A stretch of DNA of 64,000 bases. Origin: a virus (Duplodnaviria; Caudoviricetes). The DNA lies in IMG/VR virus record IMGVR_UViG_3300006133_000004, positions 20,370 to 84,369 of that record; one strand, 5' to 3'. Below, in pieces: positions 4,227-59,545 of the stretch. A program made the translations under genes and the position numbers. The first letter of the stretch is position 1. The number at the start of each line of letters is the position of its first letter. The notes under the pieces are model-generated. The model did not search any database, was not told the origin of the DNA, and worked only from the letters and a program-made list of their open reading frames with translations.

Positions 4227-4253
4227 CGCAGGTTTGGCACCTCCTTTTATGAA
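4227..4253 (+). promoter_or_regulatory. Phage motif CGC-N8-CA-N7-TTRYGRR, copy 1
   Basis: cgcaggtttggcacctccttttatgaa. Confidence 0.7.
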
Positions 4254-4267
4254 GGAGGTTGACTACC

Positions 4268-4480
4268 ATGAAAATAGACAAAAAGTTAATGAACGAGGTT
4301 GAAGAGTTGTGGGTTGGCCACGAGGAGGCATTAACTCACTTCGGACAAGTATGTGTCGCGGCAGCAAAAGCTGGGCACGATTGCAAAGTGCGAAGACATT
4401 TGCGTCTGGGTATGGTTGTAGCCACTGCGGCAACTATCATCATTACATGCTGTTTAGATTTGATGAGCGAAACTTACTAA
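4268..4480 (+). CDS. Hypothetical protein with C-terminal TM
   Basis: RBS GGAGG directly after the motif. Confidence 0.55.
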   Translation: MKIDKKLMNEVEELWVGHEEALTHFGQVCVAAAKAGHDCKVRRHLRLGMVVATAATIIITCCLDLMSETY

Positions 4481-4668
4481 AACGGGAGAGGCTCGCGGAA
4501 ACGCGGGCTCTTTCTTTTATTTTTCCCGTTTATTTTGCTTTTCCCGCTATTTCCCTTTGTTTCGCCCTAATAATCATATATGATAGTGTAGGAATTGTCA
4601 AGTAATTCCTATATAACTTTTTAACTTAGATTAGGAAGCTCGTACCTTAGAACAGAAAGGAGTCATGT

Positions 4669-5040
4669 ATGATTGCCAAGAACGCGTCAGTCTGCCCAAA
4701 ATGCGGAGGACATCTCAGATTCTTCGACACTGTGAAACGCATTGTACGGACAAAAGCTCGGGTGGCAGAATGGATTGTAATACGCAGACTCCGGTGTACC
4801 ATATGTGGTTCGTTACATAGGGAATTACCAGAGGAACTATTCCCTTACAAGCAGTACGAGGCCGAAGTCATTATCGGTGTATTGGAGGGCCTTATCACCT
4901 GCGAAACACTGGGGTTTGAGGACTATCCCTGTGAGATGACTATGTCCCGCTGGCTCGCTGAATTTACAGGTGCTGTTACGGAAAGGAGGTCGTACTATGA
5001 ACGAGAAACGACTGATGGGCGAAATCGAGAAGCTGTGTAA
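4669..5040 (+). CDS. Zn-finger protein (DUF6431-like)
   Basis: CPKCGG...RRLRC..CG..H.ELP..L.PYKQY pattern. Confidence 0.55.
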   Translation: MIAKNASVCPKCGGHLRFFDTVKRIVRTKARVAEWIVIRRLRCTICGSLHRELPEELFPYKQYEAEVIIGVLEGLITCETLGFEDYPCEMTMSRWLAEFTGAVTERRSYYERETTDGRNREAV

Positions 5041-5221
5041 AGACGGTCATACGGATGCGCTACTCTACCTGTGCCGGAACTATGGAAACGCGGCAATCGA
5101 AGGGTACAGACGTGGATACCGGAAAGCATTCTGGACAGGATTGGGCGTTTCCAGTCTGATCATTACAGGTTGCATAGGAGCAATCTCGGTCATCATGAAA
5201 CAGTACGGCAAGAAGAACTGA
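4997..5221 (+). CDS. Hypothetical protein with C-terminal TM
   Basis: RBS GAAAGGAGG. Confidence 0.55.
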   Translation: MNEKRLMGEIEKLCKDGHTDALLYLCRNYGNAAIEGYRRGYRKAFWTGLGVSSLIITGCIGAISVIMKQYGKKN

Positions 5222-5260
5222 TCCAAGGAGGGAGCGGCTAAACGGCGGCTCTCTTCTTTT

Positions 5261-5287
5261 CGCTTATTTCACAGGTCCTTTTACGGA
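5261..5287 (+). promoter_or_regulatory. Phage motif copy 2
   Basis: cgcttatttcacaggtccttttacgga. Confidence 0.75.
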
Positions 5288-5297
5288 GGTGACTGTT

Positions 5298-5579
5298 ATG
5301 GTAATCAGAAATAAAGAATACTACACTCAGTTTAACGAAGAGATGAGGCGAGACCGTAAAGCTTTGGACTACCACATCCGACAGGCAGAAAACTACAAGC
5401 GTATCTACCAGCTCACAAGAGGACGTTCGGGAGTATACGTCTTGTTGAACAAATGGGCCAAGAAGATGAATCAGATTCATTGCGATAAGGGATTCAAAAT
5501 GGCAAAGTTGGACATGACATGGTGTCTTTACGAAATGATGTACCTACAGAACTACATTCAGAAAGGTGAGGAGTCCTAA
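5298..5579 (+). CDS. Hypothetical protein
   Basis: RBS GGAGG; stop lies inside the next hairpin. Confidence 0.6.
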   Translation: MVIRNKEYYTQFNEEMRRDRKALDYHIRQAENYKRIYQLTRGRSGVYVLLNKWAKKMNQIHCDKGFKMAKLDMTWCLYEMMYLQNYIQKGEES

Positions 5580-5598
5580 ACAGGGACTTTTCCCTTTT

Positions 5599-5625
5599 CG
5601 CTTATTTCACAGGTCCTTTTACGGA
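5599..5625 (+). promoter_or_regulatory. Phage motif copy 3 (identical to copy 2)
   Basis: cgcttatttcacaggtccttttacgga. Confidence 0.75.
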
Positions 5626-5637
5626 GGTGATGTTTCA

Positions 5638-5967
5638 ATGAAACTGACGAAAGAGTATAGACGGATCTTTAATTCGGACAATGTCCACTGGTCAAAGAAC
5701 ACTACGTTGAATTTGTTCTTTCTTAAGACCACACAATCACATCTTAACGATATGCTGAAGGCCAGAGGTCATCTTATGCTGAATGAAGCATATGACGCGC
5801 TCGGATTTCCGCGTACAGCGGCAGGAGCTGTGATTGGTTGGGTCTATGAAGAGGGAAACGACTTAGTTGACTTTGGTTTAGGTAAATGCGAAATTGTCGA
5901 TCCCAACATTCCAATCGTCTTTAATGTCAATGGAAACATCTTGGACAAACTGGGAGAAGAGCCCTAA
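5638..5967 (+). CDS. Short DUF6353-like protein (C-terminal domain only)
   Basis: LKARGHLMLNEAYDALGFPRTAAGAVIGW nearly matches the 18137 ORF. Confidence 0.6.
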   Translation: MKLTKEYRRIFNSDNVHWSKNTTLNLFFLKTTQSHLNDMLKARGHLMLNEAYDALGFPRTAAGAVIGWVYEEGNDLVDFGLGKCEIVDPNIPIVFNVNGNILDKLGEEP

Positions 5968-5984
5968 CAGGGGCTCTCCCTTTT

Positions 5985-6011
5985 CGCAGATTTTGCAGGA
6001 TACATTATGGA
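5985..6011 (+). promoter_or_regulatory. Phage motif copy 4
   Basis: cgcagattttgcaggatacattatgga. Confidence 0.75.
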
Positions 6012-6130
6012 AAGGAGAGAAAATCTGCTTAGGAAGAAATCCTGAATGGAACTGGTACAGGTAAAGTCTGGCTGAAATGCCGCGTGGCCATTCAGATGGG
6101 GTTCGAGTCCCCACAGCTCGCCCTTTCTCT
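6009..6130 (+). ncRNA. Putative structured small RNA with tRNA-like T-arm
   Basis: Closing helix GAAAGG/CCTTTC; ctgaatgg/ccattcag; ggc-TGAAAT-gcc; tgggg-TTCGAGT-cccca; no ORF. Confidence 0.6.
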
Positions 6131-6138
6131 TTGTTTTC

Positions 6139-6165
6139 CGCAGATTTTACAAATTCCTTTATGAA
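6139..6165 (+). promoter_or_regulatory. Phage motif copy 5
   Basis: cgcagattttacaaattcctttatgaa. Confidence 0.75.
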
Positions 6166-6257
6166 GAGGAATAAAAGGGAAACATTGAAAAGCCAAATTG
6201 TAAGACATGGTCGGCAATTACATTCGTAAGGATGTAATCCCAAATCATGCCCTCTTC
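6163..6257 (+). ncRNA. Putative small RNA
   Basis: Closing helix GAAGAGG/CCTCTTC; internal attacatt/gatgtaat hairpin; followed by a T run. Confidence 0.45.
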
Positions 6258-6262
6258 TTTTT

Positions 6263-6289
6263 CGCCAAATCGGCAGTGGCCTTTATGGA
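6263..6289 (+). promoter_or_regulatory. Phage motif copy 6
   Basis: cgccaaatcggcagtggcctttatgga. Confidence 0.75.
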
Positions 6290-6299
6290 GGTGATACTT

Positions 6300-6494
6300 G
6301 TGGAGACCAAGAAAATTCTTAGTACGATTGGAACGTTCGTTATTGTAGGGGCAGTATCAACAGCAGGAGCCGCATTATGGACGAACGTTTTAGATGACAA
6401 ACTTAAATTGGTTAAAGCGAAGAAAACACATTCCAAATCAGACAAAGTAATTGTTGTTGATTTCAAGAAAGTAAGGAGGGACATGAGCCGCTAA
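6300..6494 (+). CDS. Small membrane protein
   Basis: GTG start after GGAGG; hydrophobic N-terminus. Confidence 0.55.
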   Translation: METKKILSTIGTFVIVGAVSTAGAALWTNVLDDKLKLVKAKKTHSKSDKVIVVDFKKVRRDMSR

Positions 6495-6521
6495 CACAGC
6501 GGCTCTCTCTCTTTTATTTTC

Positions 6522-6548
6522 CGCATAAAACTCCACGTCCTTTATGGA
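6522..6548 (+). promoter_or_regulatory. Phage motif copy 7 (CA replaced by CC)
   Basis: cgcataaaactccacgtcctttatgga. Confidence 0.65.
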
Positions 6549-6558
6549 GGTGAAAGTA

Positions 6559-6834
6559 ATGAGACAAGTCATTCTTTATGGAATTTCTGGAGCAAGTAGG
6601 GCCTATACAGTTCTGAATTACTTCTGTATCTACGAGGAATTCGTATCGATCAGCACTATCTTAGGGGAAGCGAGGCGACTTCGGATGAGAAATCCGGATA
6701 TCGAGCACGTTTACGCAATAGATAATCGATACGGGCTCCGCCGTGATTACAGGGAGAGCATGAAACGGAATAGTATCGAGAGCCATTACATTTTCAAGGA
6801 TATTCTGGAAAGAGAAGGTATGCGAATTATTTAA
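6559..6834 (+). CDS. Hypothetical protein
   Basis: RBS GGAGG. Confidence 0.6.
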   Translation: MRQVILYGISGASRAYTVLNYFCIYEEFVSISTILGEARRLRMRNPDIEHVYAIDNRYGLRRDYRESMKRNSIESHYIFKDILEREGMRII

Positions 6835-6871
6835 CTCCGAGGAGGGTCCCGGCAGGGACTTTTCCTCTTTC

Positions 6872-6898
6872 CGCAGGAATGGCAGTTCCCTTTATGAG
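6872..6898 (+). promoter_or_regulatory. Phage motif copy 8
   Basis: cgcaggaatggcagttccctttatgag. Confidence 0.7.
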
Positions 6899-6934
6899 AG
6901 GCTTAGGCTTCATCTGTTATAAGGAGTGGAAACT

Positions 6935-7096
6935 ATGTTTACAAAATTGGAAATGGTCGGAGCTATTGCTATCAGCCTGTTCGGCGGATTCGCCATCGGC
7001 TACAGCAAGGCAAGAGAAATCTGTTTGCAAGCAATCATCACTGCTACCGGAGAGCAGAAGGAACCCGAGACGACCGAGAAGGAGGAGACGCCCTAA
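6935..7096 (+). CDS. Small single-TM protein (not in ORF track)
   Basis: MFTKLEMVGAIAISLFGGFAIGYSKAREIC...ETP*; RBS AAGGAG. Confidence 0.6.
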   Translation: MFTKLEMVGAIAISLFGGFAIGYSKAREICLQAIITATGEQKEPETTEKEETP

Positions 7097-7115
7097 ACAG
7101 GGGCTCTCCCCTTTT

Positions 7116-7142
7116 CGCACAAACCACAGCACCTTTTATGGA
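7116..7142 (+). promoter_or_regulatory. Phage motif copy 9
   Basis: cgcacaaaccacagcaccttttatgga. Confidence 0.75.
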
Positions 7143-7171
7143 AGAATCCATATTTGAAAGGAGAAGCAACA

Positions 7172-7519
7172 ATGAGCATGGAAAAGTTCAAAAGGTTTGT
7201 GGAGGACCATAAAAAGGAGCTGATTGCCACTACGGCGGTCGCTGGCGGAATCGTGCTGGTGATTCTCGGGTGCAAGCGCCACAGCGGGAAGGCGGTCAAG
7301 GCCAAAGGCATATTCAGGAGGAAAGATATTTCGATCCCGGATGGCCTCAAGGTCTGGGACACGTCATACCTCTGGGTGGAGGGAAAGTACCTGAACGCAA
7401 TCGTCAACAGCATTCCCGTGGACGACCTGGGTGAACTGGGCAAGCAATACATCAAGCATGGGCTCGCACAGCCTGGCGACATTGCAAGTGTCGTTATTGG
7501 AGTCGAGTACAACAAGTGA
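7172..7519 (+). CDS. Hypothetical membrane-anchored protein
   Basis: RBS GAAAGGAG; N-terminal TM. Confidence 0.6.
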   Translation: MSMEKFKRFVEDHKKELIATTAVAGGIVLVILGCKRHSGKAVKAKGIFRRKDISIPDGLKVWDTSYLWVEGKYLNAIVNSIPVDDLGELGKQYIKHGLAQPGDIASVVIGVEYNK

Positions 7520-7632
7520 TTCTACCAAAGGTGGAGGCCGCTAAAGCAGCGGCTTTCGCCTTTTCACCGAGGTTGTTTGTACTTCAGTGTGGTTGCTAAC
7601 TTAGAATAGCCGTTGAAAGGAGGTAGTCGTTA

Positions 7633-7884
7633 ATGAGTGAACAAGAATTTCATCCAGGCTCTGTTCCAGTAGCAGTAGTAGCCCGCGTCTATGGAAAAGA
7701 TGCGTCTTGGGTTCGAGCCGGCATTGTGTCAGGATGGCTTCCGATTGGTAAGGCTACCCGAAACGGCAAACTGGTGACCAGCATCAACGAGATAGACAGC
7801 CGGTACGGACGTATCAACTTTTACATCTCGCCAAAACTCCTCTATGAGGAAACCGGATTTTTATGGAAAGGAGAAAAGCGATAA
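7633..7884 (+). CDS. Small DNA-binding (excisionase-like) protein, paralog of 54957
   Basis: GSVPVAVVARVYGKDASWVRAGIVSGWLPIG; winged-HTH-like. Confidence 0.55.
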   Translation: MSEQEFHPGSVPVAVVARVYGKDASWVRAGIVSGWLPIGKATRNGKLVTSINEIDSRYGRINFYISPKLLYEETGFLWKGEKR

Positions 7885-8317: not shown

Positions 8318-8344
8318 CGCAGAAAATACATCCACCTTTATGGA
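8318..8344 (+). promoter_or_regulatory. Phage motif copy 10
   Basis: cgcagaaaatacatccacctttatgga. Confidence 0.75.
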
Positions 8345-8622: not shown

Positions 8623-8649
8623 CGCACAATTTACAATGACCTTTATGGA
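8623..8649 (+). promoter_or_regulatory. Phage motif copy 11
   Basis: cgcacaatttacaatgacctttatgga. Confidence 0.75.
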
Positions 8650-8959: not shown

Positions 8960-9178
8960 ATGGAAATCGTAATCGCACTCGTAGCTGTCCTTATCGGCTT
9001 TATCATCGGTCGAGTCCTTCCCAGAGAGCGCCCCCTTGGCGATTTGCGGGTTGACAGGTCTGACCCGACTTGTGAGCCCTATCTTTTTCTTGAACTGGGT
9101 ACGGATGTCCGTAACGTCATGAGTAAGCGGCACGTTACATTTCGCGTCAAAGTCGAAAACTTCCTGCCGCACGAATAA
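8960..9178 (+). CDS. Small membrane-anchored protein
   Basis: RBS AGGAGG; N-terminal TM. Confidence 0.6.
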   Translation: MEIVIALVAVLIGFIIGRVLPRERPLGDLRVDRSDPTCEPYLFLELGTDVRNVMSKRHVTFRVKVENFLPHE

Positions 9179-9194
9179 CACCCGCTATTATGGA
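9168..9194 (+). promoter_or_regulatory. Phage motif copy 12 (overlaps the upstream stop)
   Basis: cgcacgaataacacccgctattatgga. Confidence 0.7.
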
Positions 9195-9958: not shown

Positions 9959-9985
9959 CGCCATTTCTACAGCGCACTTTATGAG
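9959..9985 (+). promoter_or_regulatory. Phage motif copy 13
   Basis: cgccatttctacagcgcactttatgag. Confidence 0.7.
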
Positions 9986-10478: not shown

Positions 10479-10505
10479 CGCAGATTTTGCAAATCGTATT
10501 ATGGA
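10479..10505 (+). promoter_or_regulatory. Phage motif copy 14
   Basis: cgcagattttgcaaatcgtattatgga. Confidence 0.75.
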
Positions 10506-10969: not shown

Positions 10970-10996
10970 CGCCGAATAGACAGCCTCTCTTATGGA
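10970..10996 (+). promoter_or_regulatory. Phage motif copy 15
   Basis: cgccgaatagacagcctctcttatgga. Confidence 0.7.
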
Positions 10997-11027: not shown

Positions 11028-11744
11028 ATGAATCTCAAACTTTTGAAGAGCTTAGGGGCTTTGTGCAAAGAGCAGTTACCTACGATCCTATCAGGAGCGG
11101 CAGTGATTGGAGTCTTTGCAACTGGAATCTGTGCGGCTAAGGCAACTTTGAAAGCAAAGGAAGAGGTTGAGAAGCTGGAGGAGCCGACAACCTTTGAGAA
11201 GTTCAAGGTGGCGGCACCCATTTATGGGCCGTGCGTTGCCATCGGAGGAGCAACCGTTGCTTGCATTCTTGGTGCCAACCGAGTCAGTGTCAAGCGTTAT
11301 GCAGCTCTTGCTGGGACTTGCGCTATTGCAAAGACTCAACTGCAAGAGCACAAGGACAAGGTGCTTGAGATGTTTGGCAAAGAGAAAGCAGAAGCTGTTG
11401 AACAGGAGATTGCCAAAGATCAAGTAAGCAAGAAGGCGACTGGCGGACTAATCTGTGCAAGCGACGAGCTCGTGACATGCAAGGATCTTGTGACTGGGAT
11501 GGTGTTCAAGTCAAGCATGGTCCGGATACAAGCTGCGGCAAACAACGTCAACACATTGGTGCTACTGGATGGCGCTGCTGGGTTGACGGATTTCTACGAT
11601 CAGCTTGACGAAGAACACACGCCAATCATGGAAAGAGTACGATGGCATTGCGATTCACGCATTCCGACGATGCAGATAGAGTTTGGAGCGGAGATTTCGG
11701 AGCATGGACTCCCATACTTGACGTTCACTTACGAGTGTGACTGA
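11028..11744 (+). CDS. DUF6353-like membrane protein, paralog 1
   Basis: LPTILSGAAVIGV...A.KATLKA...YGP...ILGAN signature shared with 14240, 15662 and 18137. Confidence 0.6.
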   Translation: MNLKLLKSLGALCKEQLPTILSGAAVIGVFATGICAAKATLKAKEEVEKLEEPTTFEKFKVAAPIYGPCVAIGGATVACILGANRVSVKRYAALAGTCAIAKTQLQEHKDKVLEMFGKEKAEAVEQEIAKDQVSKKATGGLICASDELVTCKDLVTGMVFKSSMVRIQAAANNVNTLVLLDGAAGLTDFYDQLDEEHTPIMERVRWHCDSRIPTMQIEFGAEISEHGLPYLTFTYECD

Positions 11745-12074: not shown

Positions 12075-12101
12075 CGCAAGATATTCACACCGTATTATGG
12101 A
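12075..12101 (+). promoter_or_regulatory. Phage motif copy 17
   Basis: cgcaagatattcacaccgtattatgga. Confidence 0.75.
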
Positions 12102-12318: not shown

Positions 12319-12345
12319 CGCAGATTTTGCACATTCCTTTATGGA
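12319..12345 (+). promoter_or_regulatory. Phage motif copy 18
   Basis: cgcagattttgcacattcctttatgga. Confidence 0.75.
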
Positions 12346-12401
12346 GAGAAAGAGTTCTGCCCGATTAGCGTTGGGAGCAAGAATTGTGGCGACTTTCTCT
12401 C
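12343..12401 (+). ncRNA. Putative short hairpin RNA
   Basis: 9-bp closing helix GAGAGAAAG/CTTTCTCTC, then a T run; no ORF. Confidence 0.5.
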
Positions 12402-12410
12402 TTTTTCTTC

Positions 12411-12437
12411 CGCAGATTTTACAAATCGTATTATGGA
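12411..12437 (+). promoter_or_regulatory. Phage motif copy 19
   Basis: cgcagattttacaaatcgtattatgga. Confidence 0.75.
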
Positions 12438-12515
12438 GAGGAGACAGTTAGCTCAGTTGGTAGAGCGCAACCTGAAATGGTTGAGGTCATCGGTTCGAGT
12501 CCGATACAGCCTCTC
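12436..12515 (+). tRNA. tRNA-like RNA (Phe/GAA-like, non-canonical 6-nt loop, imperfect acceptor stem, no CCA)
   Basis: D-arm gctc-agttggta-gagc; caacc-TGAAAT-ggttg; aggtc; T-arm atcgg-TTCGAGT-ccgat; outer helix gagagg/cctctc. Confidence 0.6.
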
Positions 12516-14239: not shown

Positions 14240-15070
14240 ATGGAAATGAAGCCTAAGCAAGGTCTGGTGAAGCAGACCCAAAAAGCCTTAAAAAAGGCGT
14301 CGCCGACAATCTTGAGCATCCTCGGAGTTGTCGGCGTGGTTACAACGGCGGTTTTGGCCGTCAAAGCTACACCCAAAGCCCTCGAACGTATTGAGGATGC
14401 TAAAGAGGCTAAAAACCTCGAAAACGGCAAAGATTTGACCCGGATGGAGACGGCAGCAGCTTGCTGGCAATGTTATATCCCTGCTGCCGCCACTGGAATC
14501 GCCACAATCGGGTGCATTATGGGCGCAAATGTCCTGAATCGGCGTCAACAGGCTTCTCTCGCCAGTGCGTATGCTTTACTTAACCGAACGTACCAGGACT
14601 ACACAAAATCGGTCAAGAACGTCTTCGGCGAAGAAGGTCATAAGCGCGTCTTGGAGGATATGGCCATTGAGCGGGTTCCCGAGAATCACACAATCTATAC
14701 CGAGGGTATGTTTGAATCTACTACCTTAGATTTCTGCATCCCTGAGGAGGAGCATCTGTTTTACGATGTTTATTCCAACCGGCAATTCGCTTCTACCATC
14801 GGAAAGGTGCTTCAGGCCGAATACCATCTGAACAGGATGTTCGCTCTGAATGGAAATGTCTCACTCAATGACTTCTATAAGTATCTCGGACTCGACCCTG
14901 TTCCTGAAGGAGACGACATTGGATGGTGGGTCGATTTCGATAATGAGGTATATTGGGTCGAGTTCAATCATGCTGTCTCTTACATTGATGACGGGCCTGA
15001 ACATCCGCAAGTCGAGTGTCTCATTATTGAGTTTCCTCAGCCGCCGGGTCTTCCGCCTCCCGAGGAGTAA
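14240..15070 (+). CDS. DUF6353-like protein, paralog 2
   Basis: SPTILSILGVVGV...AVKATPKA...CWQCYIPA...LNDFYKYLG. Confidence 0.7.
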   Translation: MEMKPKQGLVKQTQKALKKASPTILSILGVVGVVTTAVLAVKATPKALERIEDAKEAKNLENGKDLTRMETAAACWQCYIPAAATGIATIGCIMGANVLNRRQQASLASAYALLNRTYQDYTKSVKNVFGEEGHKRVLEDMAIERVPENHTIYTEGMFESTTLDFCIPEEEHLFYDVYSNRQFASTIGKVLQAEYHLNRMFALNGNVSLNDFYKYLGLDPVPEGDDIGWWVDFDNEVYWVEFNHAVSYIDDGPEHPQVECLIIEFPQPPGLPPPEE

Positions 15071-15072: not shown

Positions 15073-15099
15073 CGCAGAAACAACACACTCTATTGTGGA
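15073..15099 (+). promoter_or_regulatory. Phage motif copy 20
   Basis: cgcagaaacaacacactctattgtgga. Confidence 0.7.
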
Positions 15100-18136: not shown

Positions 18137-19099
18137 ATGATGAAAAACGAAATCATGAAGTCTGTGGGCCTGACCTTCAACAAGATCGGCTTCCAGATTC
18201 AGAAGAAGAGCCCCGAGCTCCTGGTCGCTGCCGGTATCGCCGGCGTCGTTGTCAGCGCGGTTATGGCCTGTAAGGCCACTATCAAGGCCAGCGAGGTCGC
18301 CGAGGAGACCAAAGAGACCATTGACGAGATCCACGAGGCCGAGGCCAACGGCATCACCAAGGCCGGCAAGGACTACTCCGCCGAGGACACCAAGAAGGAT
18401 CTTACCACCGCCTACATCCAGACCGGCGTAAAGTACGCCAAGCTTTACGCTCCCGCTGTCATTTTGGGCGCTGCTTCCATCACATGTATTGTTGCCAGCC
18501 ACCGTGTTCTGAAGAAGCGCAATATCGCCCTTGCGGCGGCCTATACGACCTTGGATAAGTCCTTCAAGGACTACCGCGGCCGGGTCATGGAGCGTTTCGG
18601 CGAGCAGGTCGAAAAAGAGATCCGCTACAACATCAAAGCCAAGGAGATCAAGAAGACCGTTGTCGACGAGAACGGCAAGAAGGAGAAAGTCAAAGAGGTG
18701 GTCGACGTACCTGCCGTTGAAGGATGGGACCCCTCTCAGTACAGCCCCTACGCCAGGCGCTTTGATGAGGCCCATCCGCAGTGGACGAAGAACCCTGAAA
18801 TGAACCTCTACTACCTGAAGGCCCGGCAAGCGCAGGCTACCGATATGCTCAAGGCCCGTGGTCACCTGTTCCTCAATGAGGTATATGACATGTTGGGCTT
18901 CCCCCGCACCAAGGCCGGCGCAGTTGTGGGATGGCTGTTTGACCCCAAGCATCCTGAGCTGGGCGACCCCTATGTGGATTTCGGTATGTATGAGATTCAC
19001 GAGGGCGACAGTTTCGAGGACTACCTGAAGTCCTATATTCTTGATTTCAACGTTGTTGGCGACATTACGGACGATATCGCCGACCATCAGCATATTTGA
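18137..19099 (+). CDS. DUF6353-like protein, paralog 4
   Basis: KKSPELLVAAGIAGV...ACKAT...RGHLFLNEVYDMLG. Confidence 0.72.
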   Translation: MMKNEIMKSVGLTFNKIGFQIQKKSPELLVAAGIAGVVVSAVMACKATIKASEVAEETKETIDEIHEAEANGITKAGKDYSAEDTKKDLTTAYIQTGVKYAKLYAPAVILGAASITCIVASHRVLKKRNIALAAAYTTLDKSFKDYRGRVMERFGEQVEKEIRYNIKAKEIKKTVVDENGKKEKVKEVVDVPAVEGWDPSQYSPYARRFDEAHPQWTKNPEMNLYYLKARQAQATDMLKARGHLFLNEVYDMLGFPRTKAGAVVGWLFDPKHPELGDPYVDFGMYEIHEGDSFEDYLKSYILDFNVVGDITDDIADHQHI

Positions 19100-19110
19100 G
19101 GTGTGGGCCA

Positions 19111-19757
19111 ATGAAGAAATTTGTACTTCTCCTACTGATCGCCGCAATGGTGATTGTTGGGGATTCCTATGCGGCTGGGCCAGTAATCGTATCCAAAAAT
19201 GACAGAGCCGTTGTTCAGCTGAAGAACGCGGCTCTTCTTTCGTCTTTTGTGAAATGCACCCCCCCGGCGAGGAAATCAAGACCATCGTTGAATTGGCACA
19301 ACCCCCTGCCGAGAACGAACCGAAGGCAAAGCCGGTAGTTGAGCAAAGTCACTATTGCGACAGCATCCCGCTTACCTTTGAGGAACAGGGTTGGCTTCGA
19401 GCGGCCTGCGAAGAGTTCAACATTCCTTATGCCCTGGCGCTGGGTCTCATTGAGAAAGAGACCGAATTCCGAAATCTCATCGGGGATGACGGTGCTTCTA
19501 CCGGCTATATGCAGATTCAGAAAAAGTGGCATTGGGACAGAATGGAACGTCTCGGTGTTACAGATCTGGTGGAGCCGAGCGGTAACTTCAGAGTAGGATG
19601 CGACTTTCTGGCCGAGCTCTATGCAAAGTACAACGACTGGAGTCTGGCTCTAACCGTCTACAACCGTGGGCATAATCCTGGCTACATCACTGATTATGCC
19701 AAAGAGGTCATGGGAAACTATGCTCATTGGCAAGAGATCGTCGAAAATTATATTTAG
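19111..19757 (+). pseudogene. Signal-peptide lytic transglycosylase (SLT), frameshifted at C7 tract 19259-19265
   Basis: MKKFVLLLLIAAM signal peptide in one frame; LALGLIEKETEF...GYMQI...YNRG SLT motifs in another; one extra C fuses them. Confidence 0.65.
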
Positions 19758-19773
19758 AAAGGATGGTATCACC

Positions 19774-20027
19774 ATGAAAAAGTGCTTTAACAGCTTGCTT
19801 TCGTATACCCTGTCCGTCGTCTCCGGCTTGTTCCTCGTTAGCGGCATCGCCGTTCTGTCGGCTGGGAGGTAATGGACATGGAGGGATTTGCGAACCTTGT
19901 GTCCATGATGGACTATGTGGTTGACACAAAACGGAAGCGTCATATCACCGGCGGGCTCCTGATTAGCATGGCTATGCTTTTTGGGGGCCTTGCCATCACG
20001 GTGATGAGCGCTAAAGAGGAGGACTAA
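19774..20027 (+). CDS. Two small membrane proteins (19774-19872 and 19872-20027)
   Basis: Hydrophobic ORFs with overlapping stop/start. Confidence 0.45.
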
Positions 20028-20030
20028 ATT

Positions 20031-20669
20031 ATGGGTAAACTCAATACCGTAATTGCCTTCTTCACAGGAGCTGCTGTTGGCGGTGCGGCCGTTTGGTACA
20101 TAACCAAAGAGCGGTATGCTCAGCTTGCCGAAGAGGAGATCAACTCCGTGAAAGAGGCTTACTCCCATAGGGGAGAGAAAAAAGAGAAAGCCGATGCGGC
20201 CCTGCGGCGGTATCAGGGAGAGGGCGAAGAGGAGCCCAAGACTCCTGTTGTGACTACTAAAGTCACTGAAAAAGAGAGCATCTCCGAATACGCCAAGAGG
20301 GTTCAAAATGGGGCTCCGATGGAGTATTCCAAAACAGTCGTACCACCCAAGGCTATGGAGCCGGAGAAACCCGCTCCCCCCGTCACCTCGGGTGATGTCC
20401 CCTATGTTATTTCACCTGAGGAGTTTGACGAACTTGAAGGCTACACTCCGATCAGCCTGACTTACTTCGCCGATGGCGTATTGGCAGATGAGAACGGTGT
20501 TATTGTCGATGATGTGGAAGAGATTATTGGCGATGCACTGGAACATTTCGGCGAGTACGAGGAAGACGCAGTCTTCGCTCGAAACGACGCAAAACGATGC
20601 GACTATGAAATTCTGAAAGACGAACGCACATATGCGGAGTTTCGGAAAACTCTTCCGACCAACATCTAA
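20031..20669 (+). CDS. Membrane-anchored hypothetical protein
   Basis: N-terminal TM; acidic C-terminus. Confidence 0.7.
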   Translation: MGKLNTVIAFFTGAAVGGAAVWYITKERYAQLAEEEINSVKEAYSHRGEKKEKADAALRRYQGEGEEEPKTPVVTTKVTEKESISEYAKRVQNGAPMEYSKTVVPPKAMEPEKPAPPVTSGDVPYVISPEEFDELEGYTPISLTYFADGVLADENGVIVDDVEEIIGDALEHFGEYEEDAVFARNDAKRCDYEILKDERTYAEFRKTLPTNI

Positions 20670-26226: not shown

Positions 26227-26306
26227 CACGCCAAAACAACAATCCATGTGACGGAGAGGATGCCATAATCGGCGTCCTCTTTATATTTTGAAAGGAGAAA
26301 ACAGAT

Positions 26307-30248: not shown

Positions 30249-31490
30249 ATGGGGCGCATCAATCTCCGTGACTACCAGCTTGACGCTATTAAGCGGATGA
30301 AAAATGGATGCATCCTGTGTGGCGGTGTCGGAAGCGGTAAATCACGCACTTCCCTTGCATACTATTACGATTTGCAAGGCGGCGATCTTCTTGCGCCAGA
30401 TGAAGTCGCTATGAAGAACCCGCAAAACCTCTATATCATTACGACCGCTCGGAAACGGGACACCTGCGAGTGGGAGGGGGAACTGGCTCCGTTCCTCCTC
30501 TCTACTCATCCTGACTGCAACTACTACAAGAATACGGTAGTTGTGGATTCATGGAACAACATTGGAAAATACACGGATGTCAAAGATGCATTCTTTATAT
30601 TTGATGAACAGCGGGTAGTTGGTTATGGTGCTTGGACAAAAGCTTTCCTCAAGATTGCCAAGGCCAATAACTGGATTCTGCTATCCGCTACTCCCGGGGA
30701 CACTTGGCAGGACTACATTCCAGTCTTCATCGCCAATGGGTTCTATCGCAACAAGACTGATTTCGTTGACCAGCATGTCAACTATGACTGGCGAGCCAAA
30801 TACCCGAAGATCGATAGCTATCGGAACACAGGACGTCTGATCCGGCTTCGCAACAGTATTCTCGTAAACATGGACTTTAAGCGGCAGACTATTTCTCATC
30901 ATGAGGACATCCCCGTCCCGTATGATATTTCCAAGTATAAGGACATCATGCGGAAACGTTGGAATCCATGGGAAGATCGGCCAATCGAAACGGCAGCGGA
31001 GTTGTGTATGGCTCTTCGGCGAGTCGTCAATTCCGATGAAGCTCGTTCAGTTGCGACGCTTGAAATCTTGGAAGACCACCCCAAGGCCATTATCTTTTAC
31101 AGCTATGACTATGAGCTGGAGATTCTTCGCTCCCTTGGATATTCGGAGGGTACGGAGATAGCGGAGTGGAACGGTCATAAGCATCAGGAGATCCCGACAA
31201 GCGACAAATGGGTCTATCTTGTCCAGTACACGGCTGGCTGCGAAGGGTGGAACTGCATCACAACCGATACCATTATATTCTACTCCCAGCAGTATTCGTA
31301 CAAGGTGGCGACGCAAGCAGCCGGACGAATTGACCGACTCAACACCCCATACCAAGATTTGCACTACTACCATCTGAAGAGTTTCTCTGGAATCGACCTC
31401 GCTATCAGCAAAGCCCTTAAACAGAAGAAGAACTTCAACGAGGGTAAGTTTGTTGGCTGGGCCACCAAGCCGATGCCAAGAGCCGCATAA
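30249..31490 (+). CDS. SF2 (DEAD/SNF2-like) helicase
   Basis: LRDYQ, GGVGSGKS, FDEQ, LSATPG; own RBS GAAAGGAGG. Confidence 0.85.
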   Translation: MGRINLRDYQLDAIKRMKNGCILCGGVGSGKSRTSLAYYYDLQGGDLLAPDEVAMKNPQNLYIITTARKRDTCEWEGELAPFLLSTHPDCNYYKNTVVVDSWNNIGKYTDVKDAFFIFDEQRVVGYGAWTKAFLKIAKANNWILLSATPGDTWQDYIPVFIANGFYRNKTDFVDQHVNYDWRAKYPKIDSYRNTGRLIRLRNSILVNMDFKRQTISHHEDIPVPYDISKYKDIMRKRWNPWEDRPIETAAELCMALRRVVNSDEARSVATLEILEDHPKAIIFYSYDYELEILRSLGYSEGTEIAEWNGHKHQEIPTSDKWVYLVQYTAGCEGWNCITTDTIIFYSQQYSYKVATQAAGRIDRLNTPYQDLHYYHLKSFSGIDLAISKALKQKKNFNEGKFVGWATKPMPRAA

Positions 31491-31510
31491 TTTGCAAGTC
31501 CTATTACGGA
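31484..31510 (+). promoter_or_regulatory. Phage motif copy 22
   Basis: cgcataatttgcaagtcctattacgga. Confidence 0.7.
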
Positions 31511-45309: not shown

Positions 45310-45336
45310 CGCAGAAAAAGCAACCCCCTTTATGGA
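45310..45336 (+). promoter_or_regulatory. Phage motif copy 23
   Basis: cgcagaaaaagcaaccccttttatgga. Confidence 0.7.
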
Positions 45337-55238: not shown

Positions 55239-55251
55239 AGCCGACTGAGTC

Positions 55252-55560
55252 TAACTTAGAATAGAAAATCTATCTAACCTAAGATAGAATTCTGCCCGTT
55301 TGCCCACTTTTATTTTCAGAATGGGTGGCTTTGAGCGGTTGGGGGAGGACTGATACGGTCATTTTGCCCGAAAAAAGCGGGTTTTTGCCCACTTTTCAAA
55401 ACAAAAGTGTCCATGTACTTAGACGTAGTTAGCAGTAGTTAGCGGTTTTTGAGTATCAGAACGAGAGTTTTGGCCAAAAGCCCACTTTTACTTTACACTT
55501 AAGCACGAAAGAAAAAAGTAAGAAATATATATAAGTGGCCGGAAAAAGTGGGCAAGTGGG
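55252..55560. repeat. Non-coding region with GCCCACTTT iterons and TAACTTAGAATAG boxes
   Basis: gcccacttt at 55302, 55387 and 55480; inverted aaaagtgggc at 55544; boxes at 55252 and 55275. Confidence 0.7.
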
Positions 55561-55630
55561 TAAAAGGCGATTCTTCAGTAAAATCTTTGCCTGCGTGATG
55601 ATATTGCCTCTTTTCTTTCTTTAGAAGGTG

Positions 55631-55808
55631 TGGTATACTGTCCTTGCGACACAATCAGATAATCGCCCGATTAAGTAGGGGATAACACGGCAAATAGTGT
55701 TATCTCTCTTTACTCGTACCCTACATAATTGGGCAATGAGATTGTGTCGCAACAATGGGGAGAACACTTTTGCAGGTGCGTCTCTCCATTGAGGCGCACC
55801 TTTTTTTT
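55631..55808 (+). promoter_or_regulatory. Extended -10 promoter, structured leader and terminator/antiterminator
   Basis: TGGTATACT; 13-bp ttgcgacacaatc/gattgtgtcgcaa; terminator ggtgcgtctc/gaggcgcacc followed by T8. Confidence 0.6.
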
Positions 55809-55835
55809 ATTGATCTGAGGTGAGGAGGGCTGAAT

Positions 55836-56870
55836 ATGGCTGAGCAGAACTGGGGGATTGTTCCATGCGATGTAGCGATGGATGTTTCCCCTGCAAATGG
55901 TTTCACCAAGTTGGAACTTAATTCCACACAGAAGATTCAGGTCGGGGCTCTTTTGCAGCAACTGCCGTCTGTAGCAGTTACTAATAAAATGTCACAACTA
56001 TACACCGTTACGTTCCCAGAAGGAATATCTGGGAAACTGATGGAATTAAAACAGCGTGAAGGATTTACCACCTCAATTATTGGTGAAGATGGAAAAATCG
56101 CCGCATCGGCTGCGCTAAACCCGGTGGACCATGTCCAAGTTTTGGCCATGGGATGCTTTACCGCCATGTCAATCGCATCCAGCCAATACTTTCTCAAGAA
56201 GATCAATGACGAATTGAAAGTGATGCGGATGACCATCGATAAGATCCTTGAATTTCTTTATGGAGATAAGAAGGCAGAGTTGATGGCCGAGATCAACTTT
56301 GTCAGATATGCCTATGAAAATTATATTTTCATTATGAGGTCTGATGCGCAGCGGGCTGCAACAATCGCAAGTTTGCAGAGTGCTCGTAAGGTTGCGATCA
56401 AAGACATTGAATTTTACATAGCCGATTTGGAGTCCACCGTTAAAGGAAAAGAGGGAAAAGATATTTCGAGCCTTGTAGAAAAAGAATTCCAGCTGAAAGA
56501 AAGTCTTGAGGTCGCCATGCAACTTTATGGCGTAAGTAGTTTACTGGAAGTTTACTACGCCCAGAATTATGACCGAGGTTATCTTGAATATGTAGAAAGG
56601 GACATTTCGGTTTACATCGATAAATGTGAAAAACGGATGTTGGGTAGTTTTTCGTCCCTTCGTACCCTTGTTGACAATGCTAAGGAAATGCCGTTTAAGA
56701 AAATAGCGAAGGCTGATATTTTAGATCGCATCGATGGGCTTGTTGAATCGCTTGGTCGAGGTGAAGAATCTGACATGAGAAAATCGTTGCGGGCTGGTCT
56801 AAATGCAGCAACTCAAAAGGCTGATTATTATATGACCGTTGATGGAGTTATTTATTTGAAGACAGCGTGA
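55836..56870 (+). CDS. Moron: helical/coiled-coil hypothetical protein
   Basis: AT-richer; RBS GAGGAGG. Confidence 0.65.
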   Translation: MAEQNWGIVPCDVAMDVSPANGFTKLELNSTQKIQVGALLQQLPSVAVTNKMSQLYTVTFPEGISGKLMELKQREGFTTSIIGEDGKIAASAALNPVDHVQVLAMGCFTAMSIASSQYFLKKINDELKVMRMTIDKILEFLYGDKKAELMAEINFVRYAYENYIFIMRSDAQRAATIASLQSARKVAIKDIEFYIADLESTVKGKEGKDISSLVEKEFQLKESLEVAMQLYGVSSLLEVYYAQNYDRGYLEYVERDISVYIDKCEKRMLGSFSSLRTLVDNAKEMPFKKIAKADILDRIDGLVESLGRGEESDMRKSLRAGLNAATQKADYYMTVDGVIYLKTA

Positions 56871-56879
56871 TTGGAGTAG

Positions 56880-57449
56880 ATGATAATGAGCTCTAAGAAA
56901 ACGAATGGTGGAAACAATAAAAAATCTATCGCTCCTACTGTGTTGTCTGCCTTAACAATAGCCCCAGCCATAATTACAGCTGTTGAAGAATTGATAGATA
57001 AGCTTCCAGATATTCCGAGTAAAGTTGGTGTTCCACAATTATATGGCCTCGGTTTTCCGTTGAAACTGGATCAGGCTATTACAAGATTGACCAAGGTAGG
57101 CCTGACAGTTATGCCAAGTGAACTGAGTATTGGAGAAGCCGATCCAAAATATAGAAACTGCGTTGACTCCGAGGTGGTTGATTCAGATCCAAAGCCAAAA
57201 CAGAAGGTTGCTGCTGGATATCCCGTAATAATTAGGTATGTTACTCAGGAAGTGATTGACGAAAGTAAGCGGCTGTTTGAGGAATTGGAGAGACAGAAAG
57301 CAGAGGCAAACCGCATAAAAAATGAGAAACGTGAACATCAGAAAGCGCAGGCACAAAGGACTATCGCAGATGCTGCTATCCAAGTTAAGGGTTTACCTGA
57401 AAAAATATTACACTATAATAAGAAAGGAACCAAATCTAAAGCTCCTTAA
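56880..57449 (+). CDS. Moron: PASTA-like domain protein
   Basis: VPQLYG...AITRLTKVGL...VVDSDPKP...V..G..V.IRY. Confidence 0.5.
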   Translation: MIMSSKKTNGGNNKKSIAPTVLSALTIAPAIITAVEELIDKLPDIPSKVGVPQLYGLGFPLKLDQAITRLTKVGLTVMPSELSIGEADPKYRNCVDSEVVDSDPKPKQKVAAGYPVIIRYVTQEVIDESKRLFEELERQKAEANRIKNEKREHQKAQAQRTIADAAIQVKGLPEKILHYNKKGTKSKAP

Positions 57450-57501
57450 CAAAATTATATTTTTGGAAAAGAGACGCCTTAATCAGCGTCTCTTTTCTTT
57501 T

Positions 57502-57528
57502 CGCCGAAAAAACAGACTCTTTTATGGA
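57502..57528 (+). promoter_or_regulatory. Phage motif copy 24
   Basis: cgccgaaaaaacagactcttttatgga. Confidence 0.75.
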
Positions 57529-57610
57529 GAGAAGAGATGTGCTCTAAAAATATTCCCCGTGGTTACGGAATACGGAGTTGTGTGGCAGCAATAAATATCA
57601 CTTCTCTCTT
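57526..57610 (+). ncRNA. Putative small RNA or structured leader
   Basis: Closing helix GAGAGAAG/CTTCTCTC; internal tattcc/ggaata. Confidence 0.45.
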
Positions 57611-57638
57611 TTATTTTTCAATAAGGAGGGTCTATCCG

Positions 57639-58193
57639 ATGGATATTCACAACAAACCATCATCGCAGAATTACCTTGCTCATCATGGAGTGAAGGGTAT
57701 GCGCTGGGGAGTTCGACGTTACCAGAATTATGACGGTTCCTATACCCAGAAAGGCTTGGAGCGTTATCGCAAAGCAGACCAAGCGCATGAAGATGCTAAG
57801 CAGAAAGCAAAAGAAACGAAACAAGCATATAAGAATGGGACAGCGACAAAAGATCAGTACAAGGCCGCTAAGGGTGAAGTAAAAGTAACAAAGAGAGCTC
57901 TCGATAAGAGTTACGACAAGTTGAAAACTGATAAGCTCGCCGATGAGGGAAAGAAGCTTTATCAGCGAGGAAAAACGATTACGAGCAATACTCAGACTAC
58001 TCAGCTTGCTGAGACTGGCATTATTGTTGGGTCAGGTATAGTCACTACGCTTCTGTCTAATACAATGAAAGACACCCGCGTGGCCTATTTGGCTGGTACA
58101 TCTATCGCAATCGGCGGCACCATTGTTAATGCCATACTTACAGGAAAGGCAAATTCTGAGAACAAAAAGCTCCGTGCGTACTATGCTCACTAA
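57639..58193 (+). CDS. Protein with N-terminal HHGxKGxxWGVR leader, coiled coil and two C-terminal hydrophobic helices
   Basis: YLAHHGVKGMRWGVRRYQNYDG; RBS AAGGAGG. Confidence 0.7.
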   Translation: MDIHNKPSSQNYLAHHGVKGMRWGVRRYQNYDGSYTQKGLERYRKADQAHEDAKQKAKETKQAYKNGTATKDQYKAAKGEVKVTKRALDKSYDKLKTDKLADEGKKLYQRGKTITSNTQTTQLAETGIIVGSGIVTTLLSNTMKDTRVAYLAGTSIAIGGTIVNAILTGKANSENKKLRAYYAH

Positions 58194-58205
58194 AAGGAGC
58201 GTCAT

Positions 58206-59117
58206 ATGGATATTTACCACAAACCATCTTTAAGCGTTTATCTCCAGCATTACAGTAAACCATCCTTAGACGAGTGCCTTGCTCATCATGGCATTCGAGG
58301 TCAAAAATGGGGAGTTCGTAATGGCCCGCCATATCCTTTAGGAGAAAAAGACCATTCGGCATCAGAAAAGAAGGCTGGATGGCAGAAATCTCTTGATAAA
58401 CATCAAGTGGATCAGCAAAGATCCTCCGACAAGAGCTTGACCATAACTAAAGGTGGAGCTAAAATGAACATGTCTGGAGAAACCCGCAATAATCATCAGA
58501 GCCATATTTCAAATGGGGCATTAAACATTTCAAACGAGATTCGTCAAGTGGCAAATAAAACGGGTCTTAAACTTAAAACGGGTAATATGTCAATAGACGA
58601 AGACTGCAAAGCTGTTGACCCGGATTACAACCCCAATAGCCCTTTAGCGCGAAATAACTGTGGAAAATGTAGTGCAGCTTATGTCCTTCGTAGAATGGGG
58701 CTTGATGTTGAAGCAGAAGACATGCGAAAGGAAGAAGCTGATGTTGGACTCGATTATAATGATTTTGGGAAGTATTTTAAGGGATACAAACCTGAAGGGA
58801 TCATTACGGGAAACCATTTTACCAAAAATGGATATCGAGATGCGTTATCCAAAAAGCTTCTAAAGCTCTGTAACAACGAAAATGGAGCGATGGGAATTAT
58901 GCTAATTGGAGATGGATATTCTATTGGGCATTTTGTTTCATGGGAGAATGTGAATGGACAGATCCATTACGTTGACTCACAAGGAAAAATGTCAAACGCT
59001 GATTACATATTCCAAGGAATGGCATCTGGGATACTTTTGCGTGGATGTTGGGTCGGTCGCCTCGACAATCTGGAAATCAATACCGACACGATTGGCGAAT
59101 TAGTCAAAAACAAATGA
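58206..59117 (+). CDS. HHG-leader protein with C-terminal papain-fold (Tox-PL/deamidase-like) domain
   Basis: LAHHGIRGQKWGVRNGPPYPL; NNCGKC...GHF...YVDSQ putative Cys-His-Asp triad. Confidence 0.7.
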   Translation: MDIYHKPSLSVYLQHYSKPSLDECLAHHGIRGQKWGVRNGPPYPLGEKDHSASEKKAGWQKSLDKHQVDQQRSSDKSLTITKGGAKMNMSGETRNNHQSHISNGALNISNEIRQVANKTGLKLKTGNMSIDEDCKAVDPDYNPNSPLARNNCGKCSAAYVLRRMGLDVEAEDMRKEEADVGLDYNDFGKYFKGYKPEGIITGNHFTKNGYRDALSKKLLKLCNNENGAMGIMLIGDGYSIGHFVSWENVNGQIHYVDSQGKMSNADYIFQGMASGILLRGCWVGRLDNLEINTDTIGELVKNK

Positions 59118-59125
59118 ATAGGAGA

Positions 59126-59455
59126 ATGACGATGGTATCTTTGAAAACGGCGTGTCATGTGGTTGAAACAAATCATCCCAATCGATGCATTGTGAGATGC
59201 TTCGATTATGATTCTTTCTATGGTTTTATGACTGTGCTCCGTAATTGGAGTGAAAAAAGTATGGAACTTCCATCCGTACCTGCCAACAACAGTATGAATT
59301 ATATTCGGAAGGAAGATGGTACAGAATTTTTTCTTTCCTTCCATGATTGTCTAAACCTATTAAAAGATGGAACAGAAGTAGATATCAAAGATTATCTTTC
59401 TTCTGAAGACGTTGCATTTGCAACGAAGGTAAAAGAATCGATCAACCGACATTAA
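59126..59455 (+). CDS. Small protein, candidate immunity partner
   Basis: Immediately follows the toxin ORF; RBS AGGAG; terminator downstream. Confidence 0.45.
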   Translation: MTMVSLKTACHVVETNHPNRCIVRCFDYDSFYGFMTVLRNWSEKSMELPSVPANNSMNYIRKEDGTEFFLSFHDCLNLLKDGTEVDIKDYLSSEDVAFATKVKESINRH

Positions 59456-59518
59456 CACTTCCGCAACTATATTTTTTAGAACAGAGACGCCGATTATGAC
59501 GTCTCTGTTTTTCTTTTG

Positions 59519-59545
59519 CGCCAAAAAAACAGACTCTTTTATGGA
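59519..59545 (+). promoter_or_regulatory. Phage motif copy 25 (heads the operon containing the RNAP gene)
   Basis: cgccaaaaaaacagactcttttatgga. Confidence 0.75.

Follow-up and report, generated by a model that had tools for sequence, protein, structure and literature searches.

A Three-Box Motif as a Candidate Promoter Class for a Two-Barrel RNA Polymerase in a Temperate Gut Phage

Introduction

The T7 promoter consensus is contiguous and extends across the purine at +1, and the T7 enzyme displays a right-hand fold. At the middle promoters of T4, a box located near -30 is combined with TATAAT, MotA substitutes for the -35 element, and transcription starts about 7 nt past the -10. Melting of these and other sigma70-type promoters requires an A at -11.

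Two described systems employ two-barrel polymerases. YonO, a single-chain DNA-dependent RNA polymerase of this type from the temperate Firmicute phage SPbeta, transcribes the phage's late genes as a single operon from one promoter, the sequence and factor requirement of which were left open (PMC5467207). Thermus phage P23-45 has two such polymerases, gp96 and gp64, and a separate promoter motif for each (10.1101/2022.12.01.518664). A YonO-like polymerase was predicted for the 1706 phage family in 2010 and 2021; neither of two reports on the putative enzyme (PMC2919709; bioRxiv 10.1101/842583) proposes a promoter, and no report of an activity test on it was found. In the Gordonia cluster DJ phages Vardy (PMC9671010) and Conley (PMC10868162), a 43-50-bp MEME motif with five copies per genome has been read as a sigma70 -10.

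Here we describe a 27-bp motif in a 64,000-nt stretch (the window) of an 84-kb viral genome. The window is that of a temperate gut-Clostridia phage belonging to the 1706/Oengus/actinophage AM-AU-BI-DJ-EL lineage.

Results

The first-pass annotation had described 25 plus-strand copies of the element CGC-N8-CA-N7-TTRYGRR, with freely varying spacers, nearly all located after a terminator or stop codon. It took them for promoters read by a phage polymerase encoded by ORF 60992, with the start near the G of TTATGG. The copies and the adjoining integrase region are as follows.

2771-4006, minus: tyrosine integrase, which marks the phage as temperate
4227-4253, plus: copy 1, before the first early gene and facing the integrase promoter
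4573-4601, minus: canonical host sigmaA promoter (11/12) driving toward the integrase; an inverted repeat spans its -35
4956-4982, plus: copy overlooked in the first pass, within the ORF at 4669; Shine-Dalgarno (SD) at position 26
5261-5287, plus: copy 3' of a terminator; SD from position 25
5599-5625, plus: copy 3' of a terminator, preceding ORF 5638; SD at position 25
5985-6011, plus: copy preceding a ~130-nt noncoding unit with a T-arm-like hairpin at its end
6139-6165, plus: copy preceding a ~100-nt noncoding unit
6263-6289, plus: copy with SD at position 25
6522-6548, plus: copy with CC replacing CA; SD at position 25
6872-6898, plus: copy 3' of a terminator
7116-7142, plus: copy 3' of a terminator
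8318-8344, plus: strict pattern match
8623-8649, plus: copy 3' of a terminator; SD at position 26
9168-9194, plus: copy overlapping the 3' end of the preceding ORF
9959-9985, plus: copy 3' of a terminator; structured leader
10479-10505, plus: strict pattern match
10970-10996, plus: copy immediately 3' of a stop codon
11785-11811, plus: copy 3' of a terminator
12075-12101, plus: copy with SD at position 25
12319-12345, plus: copy preceding a ~70-nt hairpin RNA
12411-12437, plus: copy preceding a tRNA-like gene (12442-12513)
15073-15099, plus: copy immediately 3' of a stop codon
16431-16457, plus: copy at the head of an operon extending to the primase-polymerase
26229-26255, plus: degenerate 27th copy with an altered third block, just past the primase-polymerase stop
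31484-31510, plus: copy at the helicase stop, with the ligase next
45310-45336, plus: strict pattern match
57502-57528, plus: copy 3' of a terminator, followed by two DUF7211 genes
59519-59545, plus: copy heading the polymerase operon

The motif is real and not a product of chance. CGC, the second box, and TTRYGRR were present at the given spacing at all 25 of the starts first listed, with CA as the second box everywhere except at 6522. The strict pattern gave 25 plus-strand matches in the window, namely 24 of those starts and the extra copy at 4956, and none on the minus strand. The first pass had proposed a regex or PWM scan with shuffled controls; in 100 dinucleotide shuffles the mean was 0.12 matches with a maximum of 2, which places the motif far above chance. 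Among 64 spacer combinations, N8/N7 was the only populated one (25 versus at most 3). A PWM scan of the whole genome revealed 26 sites scoring 20-36, the copy at 26229 scoring 15, and all others below 7; loose matches at 19227, 20009, and 30345 were rejected as noise on their scores. The best minus-strand score was 5, and the 20 kb of the genome beyond the window contained no site in the PWM scan. Every entry in the original list was thus genuine, although the list was incomplete (26 strong copies plus the weak one).

The spacers are constrained rather than free to vary: 26/26 copies have A/T at positions 7-8 and C/T at position 19, 20/26 have C at position 18, and G25 is near-invariant. The centres of the boxes are spaced 10.5 bp apart. 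With a terminator defined as a hairpin of -10 kcal or lower plus a T-run, one lies just 5' of 14/26 copies as compared to 17/500 random positions, and several other copies follow a stop codon; the proposed placement holds to that extent, but not at 4956, which is intra-ORF. The structural genes are without the motif.

Of the seven perfect GGAGGTGA SD sites in the whole genome, five have position 25 of the motif as their first base (binomial p 1e-8). Transcripts would therefore start at or before positions 25-26, and a start near G25 is the one best supported by the sequence. With G25 as +1, there is a pyrimidine at -1 and a purine at +1; the first two boxes map to -24 to -22 (CGC) and -13/-12 (CA), and -6 to -1 is taken up by the A/T-rich block. 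A hypothetical start at 31 would deprive six genes with 7-11-nt leaders of their SD. In six small-RNA units of the window the stems seem to start at G25; this is a weak hint only, because a covariation test covering 17 anchored helices did not reach significance (p 0.15) and purine/U-tract pairing could explain the stems. Four runs designated as metatranscriptomes were rejected as RNA evidence: they come from one study, contain contigs up to 186 kb, are probably mostly DNA, and show neither transcript starts nor transcript ends.

The polymerase gene lies within the following operon.

59612-60988, plus: nuclease (59612), HNH (59883), and Cas4-like/DUF2800 (60431) genes, upstream of the polymerase gene
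60992-63679, plus: ORF 60992, an 895-aa single-chain two-barrel RNA polymerase (phrog_4291) by homology and predicted structure
63696-63959, plus: 87-aa gene (phrog_4303), next after the polymerase in relatives too

The predicted model (pLDDT 82.7) marks ORF 60992 as a DxDGD polymerase of the two-barrel type, with the fold of QDE-1 and P23-45 gp64. The core spans about 229-725 and has the double-psi barrel fold, the DxDGD loop (D509/D511/D513), and the R-x-P (R462/P464) and basic second-barrel residues. Indeed, R273, K283, R462, P464, D509, D511, and D513 are invariant across 144 homologues. The top structural matches are QDE-1 and RDR2 (Z 17-18, rmsd 4.0-4.9, about 350-375 residues aligned), with values for RDR2 of Z 17.8, rmsd 4.0, and 353 aligned, and a Foldseek E of 7e-10 for QDE-1; P74 gp62 and gp64 follow at Z 13-14. 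A PDB sequence search returned HTHs only. Four modules are predicted, with HTHs at about 47-70, 90-112, and 873-895 and a winged-helix-like region at 139-195. The recognition helix of HTH2 has conserved E/S/V/R, and a joint loss is seen once, in P092; from these two observations, HTH2 may be the module that reads CGC. The N-terminus is a variant of the DUF7211 peptide; no paper mentioning DUF7211 or its peptide was found in a literature search. Full-length homology and the gene order nuclease, Cas4-like, polymerase, small gene place ORF 60992 in the 1706/Oengus family (phrog_4291), at 54% to FP_oengus and 36-50% to the lactococcal and actinophage orthologues. The 1706 orthologue, orf75, was labelled "structural protein" by its depositors.

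The first pass had also proposed scans of related phages and of the host chromosome. The same geometry recurs, in register, across two phyla and in 12 named relatives, among them FP_oengus, Mudcat, Gordon, Qui, Rima, Kenosha, Damascus, and BitterVaud1, with 10 copies in the cluster DJ phage Kenosha. The exact window pattern had no matches in actinophage and lactococcal genomes, where the variant was recovered by de novo dyads and PWM; the lactococcal phages retain CA-N5-TATART with a weakened first box. A PWM trained without Yotsuba located 9 plus-strand and 0 minus-strand sites in that phage. When the second spacer was shortened by one base, there were 2 viral matches versus at least 112 with the correct spacing. 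At 70/70 viral loci the polymerase gene is preceded, 0.9-1.4 kb upstream, by a motif site, the position of 59519 being conserved in all, and the sites at these loci number 157 plus and 0 minus. Conversely, when long contigs were selected for the motif, the polymerase was encoded on 25/28, and on 18/18 of those at least 90% complete. In five host genomes the matches are concentrated in prophage and otherwise stay at control level, bar one unrelated dispersed repeat; the motif thus goes with its presumed cognate polymerase rather than with the host. In most relatives no canonical site lies ahead of the late genes.

The co-occurrence is lineage-wide, and therefore any other core gene would co-occur just as well. 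The polymerase is the sole recognised transcription protein among the genes common to all 11 relatives tested; the other core genes include 5638 (present in 11/11), 18137, and 63696, which have no assigned function. No sigma factor was recognised among the window genes. There is no clear repressor gene, with a single weak and unassigned HTH_19 match, and an exact SOS box is absent from the window.

Discussion

The motif is likely to represent a promoter class of the phage polymerase ORF 60992, with a self-amplifying loop. Reading from the sequence, this is favoured by the two-way co-occurrence, the placement at the polymerase operon, the lack of a sigma factor in the window, and the SD sites at positions 25-26.

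It is unlikely that host RNA polymerase with sigmaA uses the third block as a -10, a phage activator on CGC-N8-CA replacing the -35; in this scheme the HTH part of ORF 60992 might itself be the activator. The claim that the motif is unlike sigma70 -35/-10 needs qualification, since the third block is, in register, TATAAT in actinophage and lactococcal relatives, nearly all of whose sites carry TATAAT or TATAGT, and the motif was interpreted as a sigma70 -10 in both DJ reports. CGC would, moreover, sit at -30 to -28, matching the MotA box. In the window, TAnnnT (T-12, A-11, T-7) fits only 7/26 sites, and 0/14 in Oengus, whereas most actinophage and lactococcal sites fit. The best match to TTGACA at 16-18 nt averages 2.7/6, is not above background, and reaches 4/6 or more at 1/26 window sites; an extended TG is present at 1/26. 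Assignment as a sigma70/sigmaA promoter thus fails in the window on both the -10 hexamer and the -35/TG; a sigma54 promoter was likewise rejected, CGC and CA being eight bases apart rather than the ten of GG -24/GC -12. The A at -11 is missing from 14/14 Oengus, 19/26 window, and 5/9 Yotsuba sites and from most sites heading the polymerase operon, whereas G25 hardly varies. Besides stripping the six SDs, a start near 31 would trim the acceptor stem of an Oengus tRNA-like RNA. Also against sigmaA are the canonical form of the genuine sigmaA promoter of the same genome and the invariant catalytic centre of ORF 60992. In lytic members, host sigmaA could use the perfect TATAAT third block, and dual use of the motif by host and phage enzymes is possible.

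Oriented repressor sites that silence the prophage, comparable to cluster A mycobacteriophage stoperators, would also be asymmetric, in a single orientation, and intergenic in a temperate phage. We consider them very improbable here: the motif is not confined to phages that are temperate and carry a matching repressor, being retained in five relatives with a tyrosine integrase in 0/5, and the sites follow terminators and adjoin SDs or the 5' ends of RNAs, where there is no further promoter that could be repressed. Least probable is a motif serving chiefly as a recombination or cassette-insertion site that assembles the modular early region. Contigs of related strains, from one study, do gain, lose, and exchange units at the boundaries of the motif or close to them, but lone copies head conserved operons where no swapping is seen. 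Homology between copies is short because the spacers differ from copy to copy, and the exchange of cassettes is more plausibly a side effect of having promoter-terminator units in repeated form.

With respect to the phage-polymerase promoter, we infer a scheme in which ORF 60992 would recognise the motif, its domains pairing with the boxes, and the A/T-rich block at -6 to -1 would melt, with transcription beginning near G25. Given the 10.5-bp distance between box centres, the HTH modules could dock on one helix face without a sigma factor. The 22 early-region copies would direct transcription of small promoter-gene-terminator cassettes and of small RNAs, other copies would head replication operons, and that at 59519, heading the polymerase's own operon, would provide positive feedback. 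Read-through from this operon would probably reach the motif-less structural genes. When the phage infects, virion-borne polymerase may make the earliest transcripts; the self-amplifying model leaves the first polymerase on prophage induction without explanation.

Like T7 promoters, the motif has a consensus running through a purine +1, but T7 promoters are contiguous and served by a right-hand-fold enzyme. T4 middle promoters similarly combine an upstream box with TATAAT, yet need A-11 and start later.

The motif of Vardy and Conley, which is intergenic, mid-genome, contains TATAAT, and ends near the start codon, is very likely the same element, judging from the descriptions and from Kenosha. 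Those papers contain no polymerase link, no cross-phylum comparison, and no TATAAT-less gut version. No paper linking the motif to the polymerase was found in a search that did not cover the Rhodococcus Pepy6/Poco6 and original 1706 papers. ORF 60992 shares DxDGD and N- and C-terminal HTHs with the 1706-family YonO-like polymerase. SPbeta YonO is alike in being a single-chain two-barrel enzyme of a temperate Firmicute phage; SPbeta is not among 250 tblastn matches to the polymerase, and its one late promoter differs from the dozens of early copies here, which counts against a phage-polymerase reading. P23-45 offers the same fold, many co-oriented phage-specific promoters, and a virion polymerase that serves the first genes, but has two enzymes, two motifs, and one tape-measure fusion; here, HTHs are fused to the single enzyme and the motif has three boxes.

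A fuller model, plausible but somewhat doubtful as a whole, is that one 100-kDa polymerase would read a double-stranded three-box promoter via fused HTHs without sigma or host factor, be packed into the virion by a short N-terminal tag, and amplify itself; enzyme and promoter would have moved together between Firmicutes and Actinobacteria as a transcription unit independent of the host, and temperate members would have lost TATAAT to stay silent. The tie between that loss and temperate life, amounting to about one independent contrast, is only an idea.

Promoter finding by single-chain two-barrel polymerases becomes testable with a candidate promoter of 27 bp, its predicted start, and an enzyme that may read it, and cultured lytic models exist among Streptomyces, Gordonia, Arthrobacter, and Lactococcus phages (250 records). 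If true, the proposal would reannotate a motif now taken for a sigma70 -10, account for a lineage that crosses host phyla, and possibly provide an orthogonal expression system for Gram-positive bacteria.

The motif in the window

The 27-bp motif CGC-N8-CA-N7-TTRYGRR had been proposed in the first-pass annotation as a promoter for a phage-encoded polymerase, with transcription starting near the GG/GA of its third block. All of the copies listed there were located at their positions, but one further copy, at 4956, had been overlooked. The CA box is present in every listed copy except that at 6522, which carries CC. A strict-pattern scan gave 25 matches on the plus strand and none on the minus strand, versus 0.12 matches in shuffled sequence. 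N8/N7 is the sole populated spacing, and the boxes are separated by 10.5 bp, or about one helical turn; the spacer sequences, believed to vary freely, are in fact biased. Of the reported placement behind a terminator or stop codon, the terminator part holds for about half of the sites, with a hairpin and T-run lying upstream of 14 of 26 copies versus 17 of 500 random positions.

A PWM scan of all 84,369 bases of the record set 26 strong sites, plus a degenerate one at 26229, apart from the noise, and no site fell among the tail genes outside the window. The motif clusters early, with 22 copies at 4.2-16.5 kb, and the structural genes are without it. In contigs of related strains, whole cassettes have been gained or lost near motif boundaries across window positions 4950-6520 (512 extra bases at 6494-6512, for example). 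The following small noncoding units each possess a motif copy of their own.

6009-6141, small noncoding unit
6163-6262, small noncoding unit
12343-12410, small noncoding unit
12442-12513, small noncoding unit

They include a tRNA whose anticodon loop is 8 nt long and an RNA with a terminal T-arm-like hairpin. Additionally, tRNA-like RNAs with defective anticodon arms lie downstream of motifs in the relatives Oengus (FP_oengus), P092, Kenosha, and Gordon; such RNAs are possible decoys.

Other features of the genome were also observed. One of 78 window ORFs matches the Pfam family Tad8, a Thoeris type II inhibitor (6.5e-31), and there are also matches to ADP-ribosylglycohydrolase, NADAR, and MazG. 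Paralogues of one family of unknown function, core to the whole lineage, occur at 14246, 15662, and 18137 (phrog_2152) and at 11028 and 5638. The region 55240-55835 is a 600-bp noncoding, A/T-rich, origin-like stretch with a 10-mer repeated directly at 55302, 55387, and 55480 and inverted at 55544; next, ORF 55836 is preceded by an extended -10 and by a leader forming a long hairpin. Outside the window, a 391-aa ORF following the tail genes (18955-20130 of the whole record) looks by eye like a candidate diversity-generating retroelement reverse transcriptase.

The putative polymerase and its lineage

The phage is temperate, as judged by an integrase gene at 2771-4006 (minus strand), and its relatives point to a host among mouse-gut Clostridia. 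ORF 60992 (60992-63679, plus strand), the 895-aa putative polymerase, matches phrog_4291 and 250 phage records, with matching phages that include FP_oengus, those of Arthrobacter, Gordonia, Streptomyces, Microbacterium, Curtobacterium, Rhodococcus, and Bifidobacterium, and Lactococcus 1706-like phages. The polymerase has been predicted twice before: Koert et al. (10.1101/842583) described the lineage and suggested that the protein, which has HTHs at its termini, may be an RNA polymerase, and the list of YonO-like proteins given by Ruprich-Robert and Thuriaux (PMC2919709) contains a 1706 family. The predicted model, built from a 78-sequence alignment (pLDDT 82.7), resembles QDE-1, RDR2, and the Thermus phage non-virion polymerases. 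Across 144 homologues of ∼50% identity, the catalytic residues do not vary. In the gene set common to all 11 relatives, several members of which are of unknown function, the polymerase is the sole recognised transcription protein.

63696-63959, 87-aa gene, always immediately 3' of the polymerase gene; no Atlas match

The polymerase N-terminus (60992-61070) is a variant of the DUF7211 peptide, which is also found in window ORFs 57639-58193 and 58206-59117 and on one to nine small ORFs per relative genome, near the packaging genes. In 1706, the orthologue carries the annotation "structural protein." The peptide suggests a possible packaging or capsid-targeting tag. The 10.5-bp box spacing suits HTHs bound on one helical face. 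The recognition helix of the second HTH is conserved, and in P092 it is altered and the CGC box is lost; this joint change, a single event, is only a lead tying that HTH to the CGC box.

Distribution of the motif

The motif geometry extends across the relatives. Oengus has 12 strict copies. The exact window pattern fails to match in the actinophages; unseeded dyad counts recovered CGC and TATAA there at the same offsets, and the refined motif CGC-N8-CA-N5-TATARTGA is present in Mudcat, Gordon, Rima, Kenosha, Damascus, BitterVaud1, and Qui (7 to 33 copies). Yotsuba was left out of the construction of a PWM, which then found nine plus and no minus sites in that phage. In the lactococcal phages, the first box is weakened, but the CA box persists, as does the third block, with the distance between them unchanged. 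The surroundings of the polymerase gene in 80 IMG/VR loci contain 157 plus sites and no minus site. A site lies 0.9-1.4 kb upstream of the polymerase gene in 70 of 70 loci with enough upstream DNA, heading an operon of nuclease, Cas4-like protein, and polymerase, and, conversely, 25 of 28 long contigs chosen by motif alone (18 of 18 near-complete ones) encode the polymerase, although these loci are related, so that the counts do not represent independent events.

In five host genomes, matches cluster in prophage and are otherwise at control level. The excess in one genome arises from an unrelated dispersed repeat of 170 bp (∼20 copies, ∼95% identical), one end of which fits the strict pattern; the repeat is MITE-like, and the fit is probably coincidental.

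Predicted transcription start and recognition

Of the perfect GGAGGTGA sequences in the genome, seven in all, five start at motif position 25 (p about 1e-8), and each of these five SD sites precedes a start codon by 5-7 nt. Four of the five motif copies concerned follow terminators, and thus read-through cannot easily supply these SD sites. Among 307 de-duplicated sites, no GGAGGTGA SD begins before position 25, a result that the motif itself constrains. If transcription began near position 31, as from a sigma70 promoter, six window genes would lose their SD, and in Oengus a tRNA-like RNA would lose part of its acceptor stem. These positions and losses argue for a start at or before position 25-26. 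The T24/G25 step agrees with the usual pyrimidine-purine initiation step. Small-RNA stem boundaries also agree with a start at 25; they failed a covariation test. Public RNA runs yielded no transcript 5' ends.

The motif is real, and we consider it quite probable that it is the promoter of the phage polymerase. Host sigmaA, reading the third block as a -10 element, is a serious rival because that block is TATAAT in the lytic relatives and two genome announcements on one phage cluster, where the motif was glimpsed earlier, read it so (PMC9671010, PMC10868162). The original statement that the motif is unlike sigma70 -35/-10 sequences needs correcting on this point. Against the sigmaA reading, the sites have no -35, and the A equivalent to -11 is missing in 19 of 26 window, all Oengus, and 5 of 9 Yotsuba sites. 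Furthermore, no sigma factor was detected among the window genes, and the one clear sigmaA promoter of the genome is canonical, with a perfect 8-bp inverted repeat across its -35.

4557-4601 (promoter 4573-4601), minus strand, near-consensus sigmaA promoter directed toward the integrase, convergent with motif 4227

Promoters for phage polymerases are a known class, as in T7 and P23-45. Within the literature consulted, two older papers excepted, no publication was found that joins this motif to the polymerase or describes its three boxes in phages of different phyla.

Proposed working

If the phage polymerase reads the motif, a first round of transcription may come from virion-carried enzyme, as the 1706 annotation and the DUF7211-like peptide hint. 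The polymerase would then fire every motif site, including that ahead of its own gene, and its expression would thus be self-amplifying. Structural genes may be reached by read-through, and the convergent sigmaA promoter, which overlaps the first cassette, may belong to the prophage switch.
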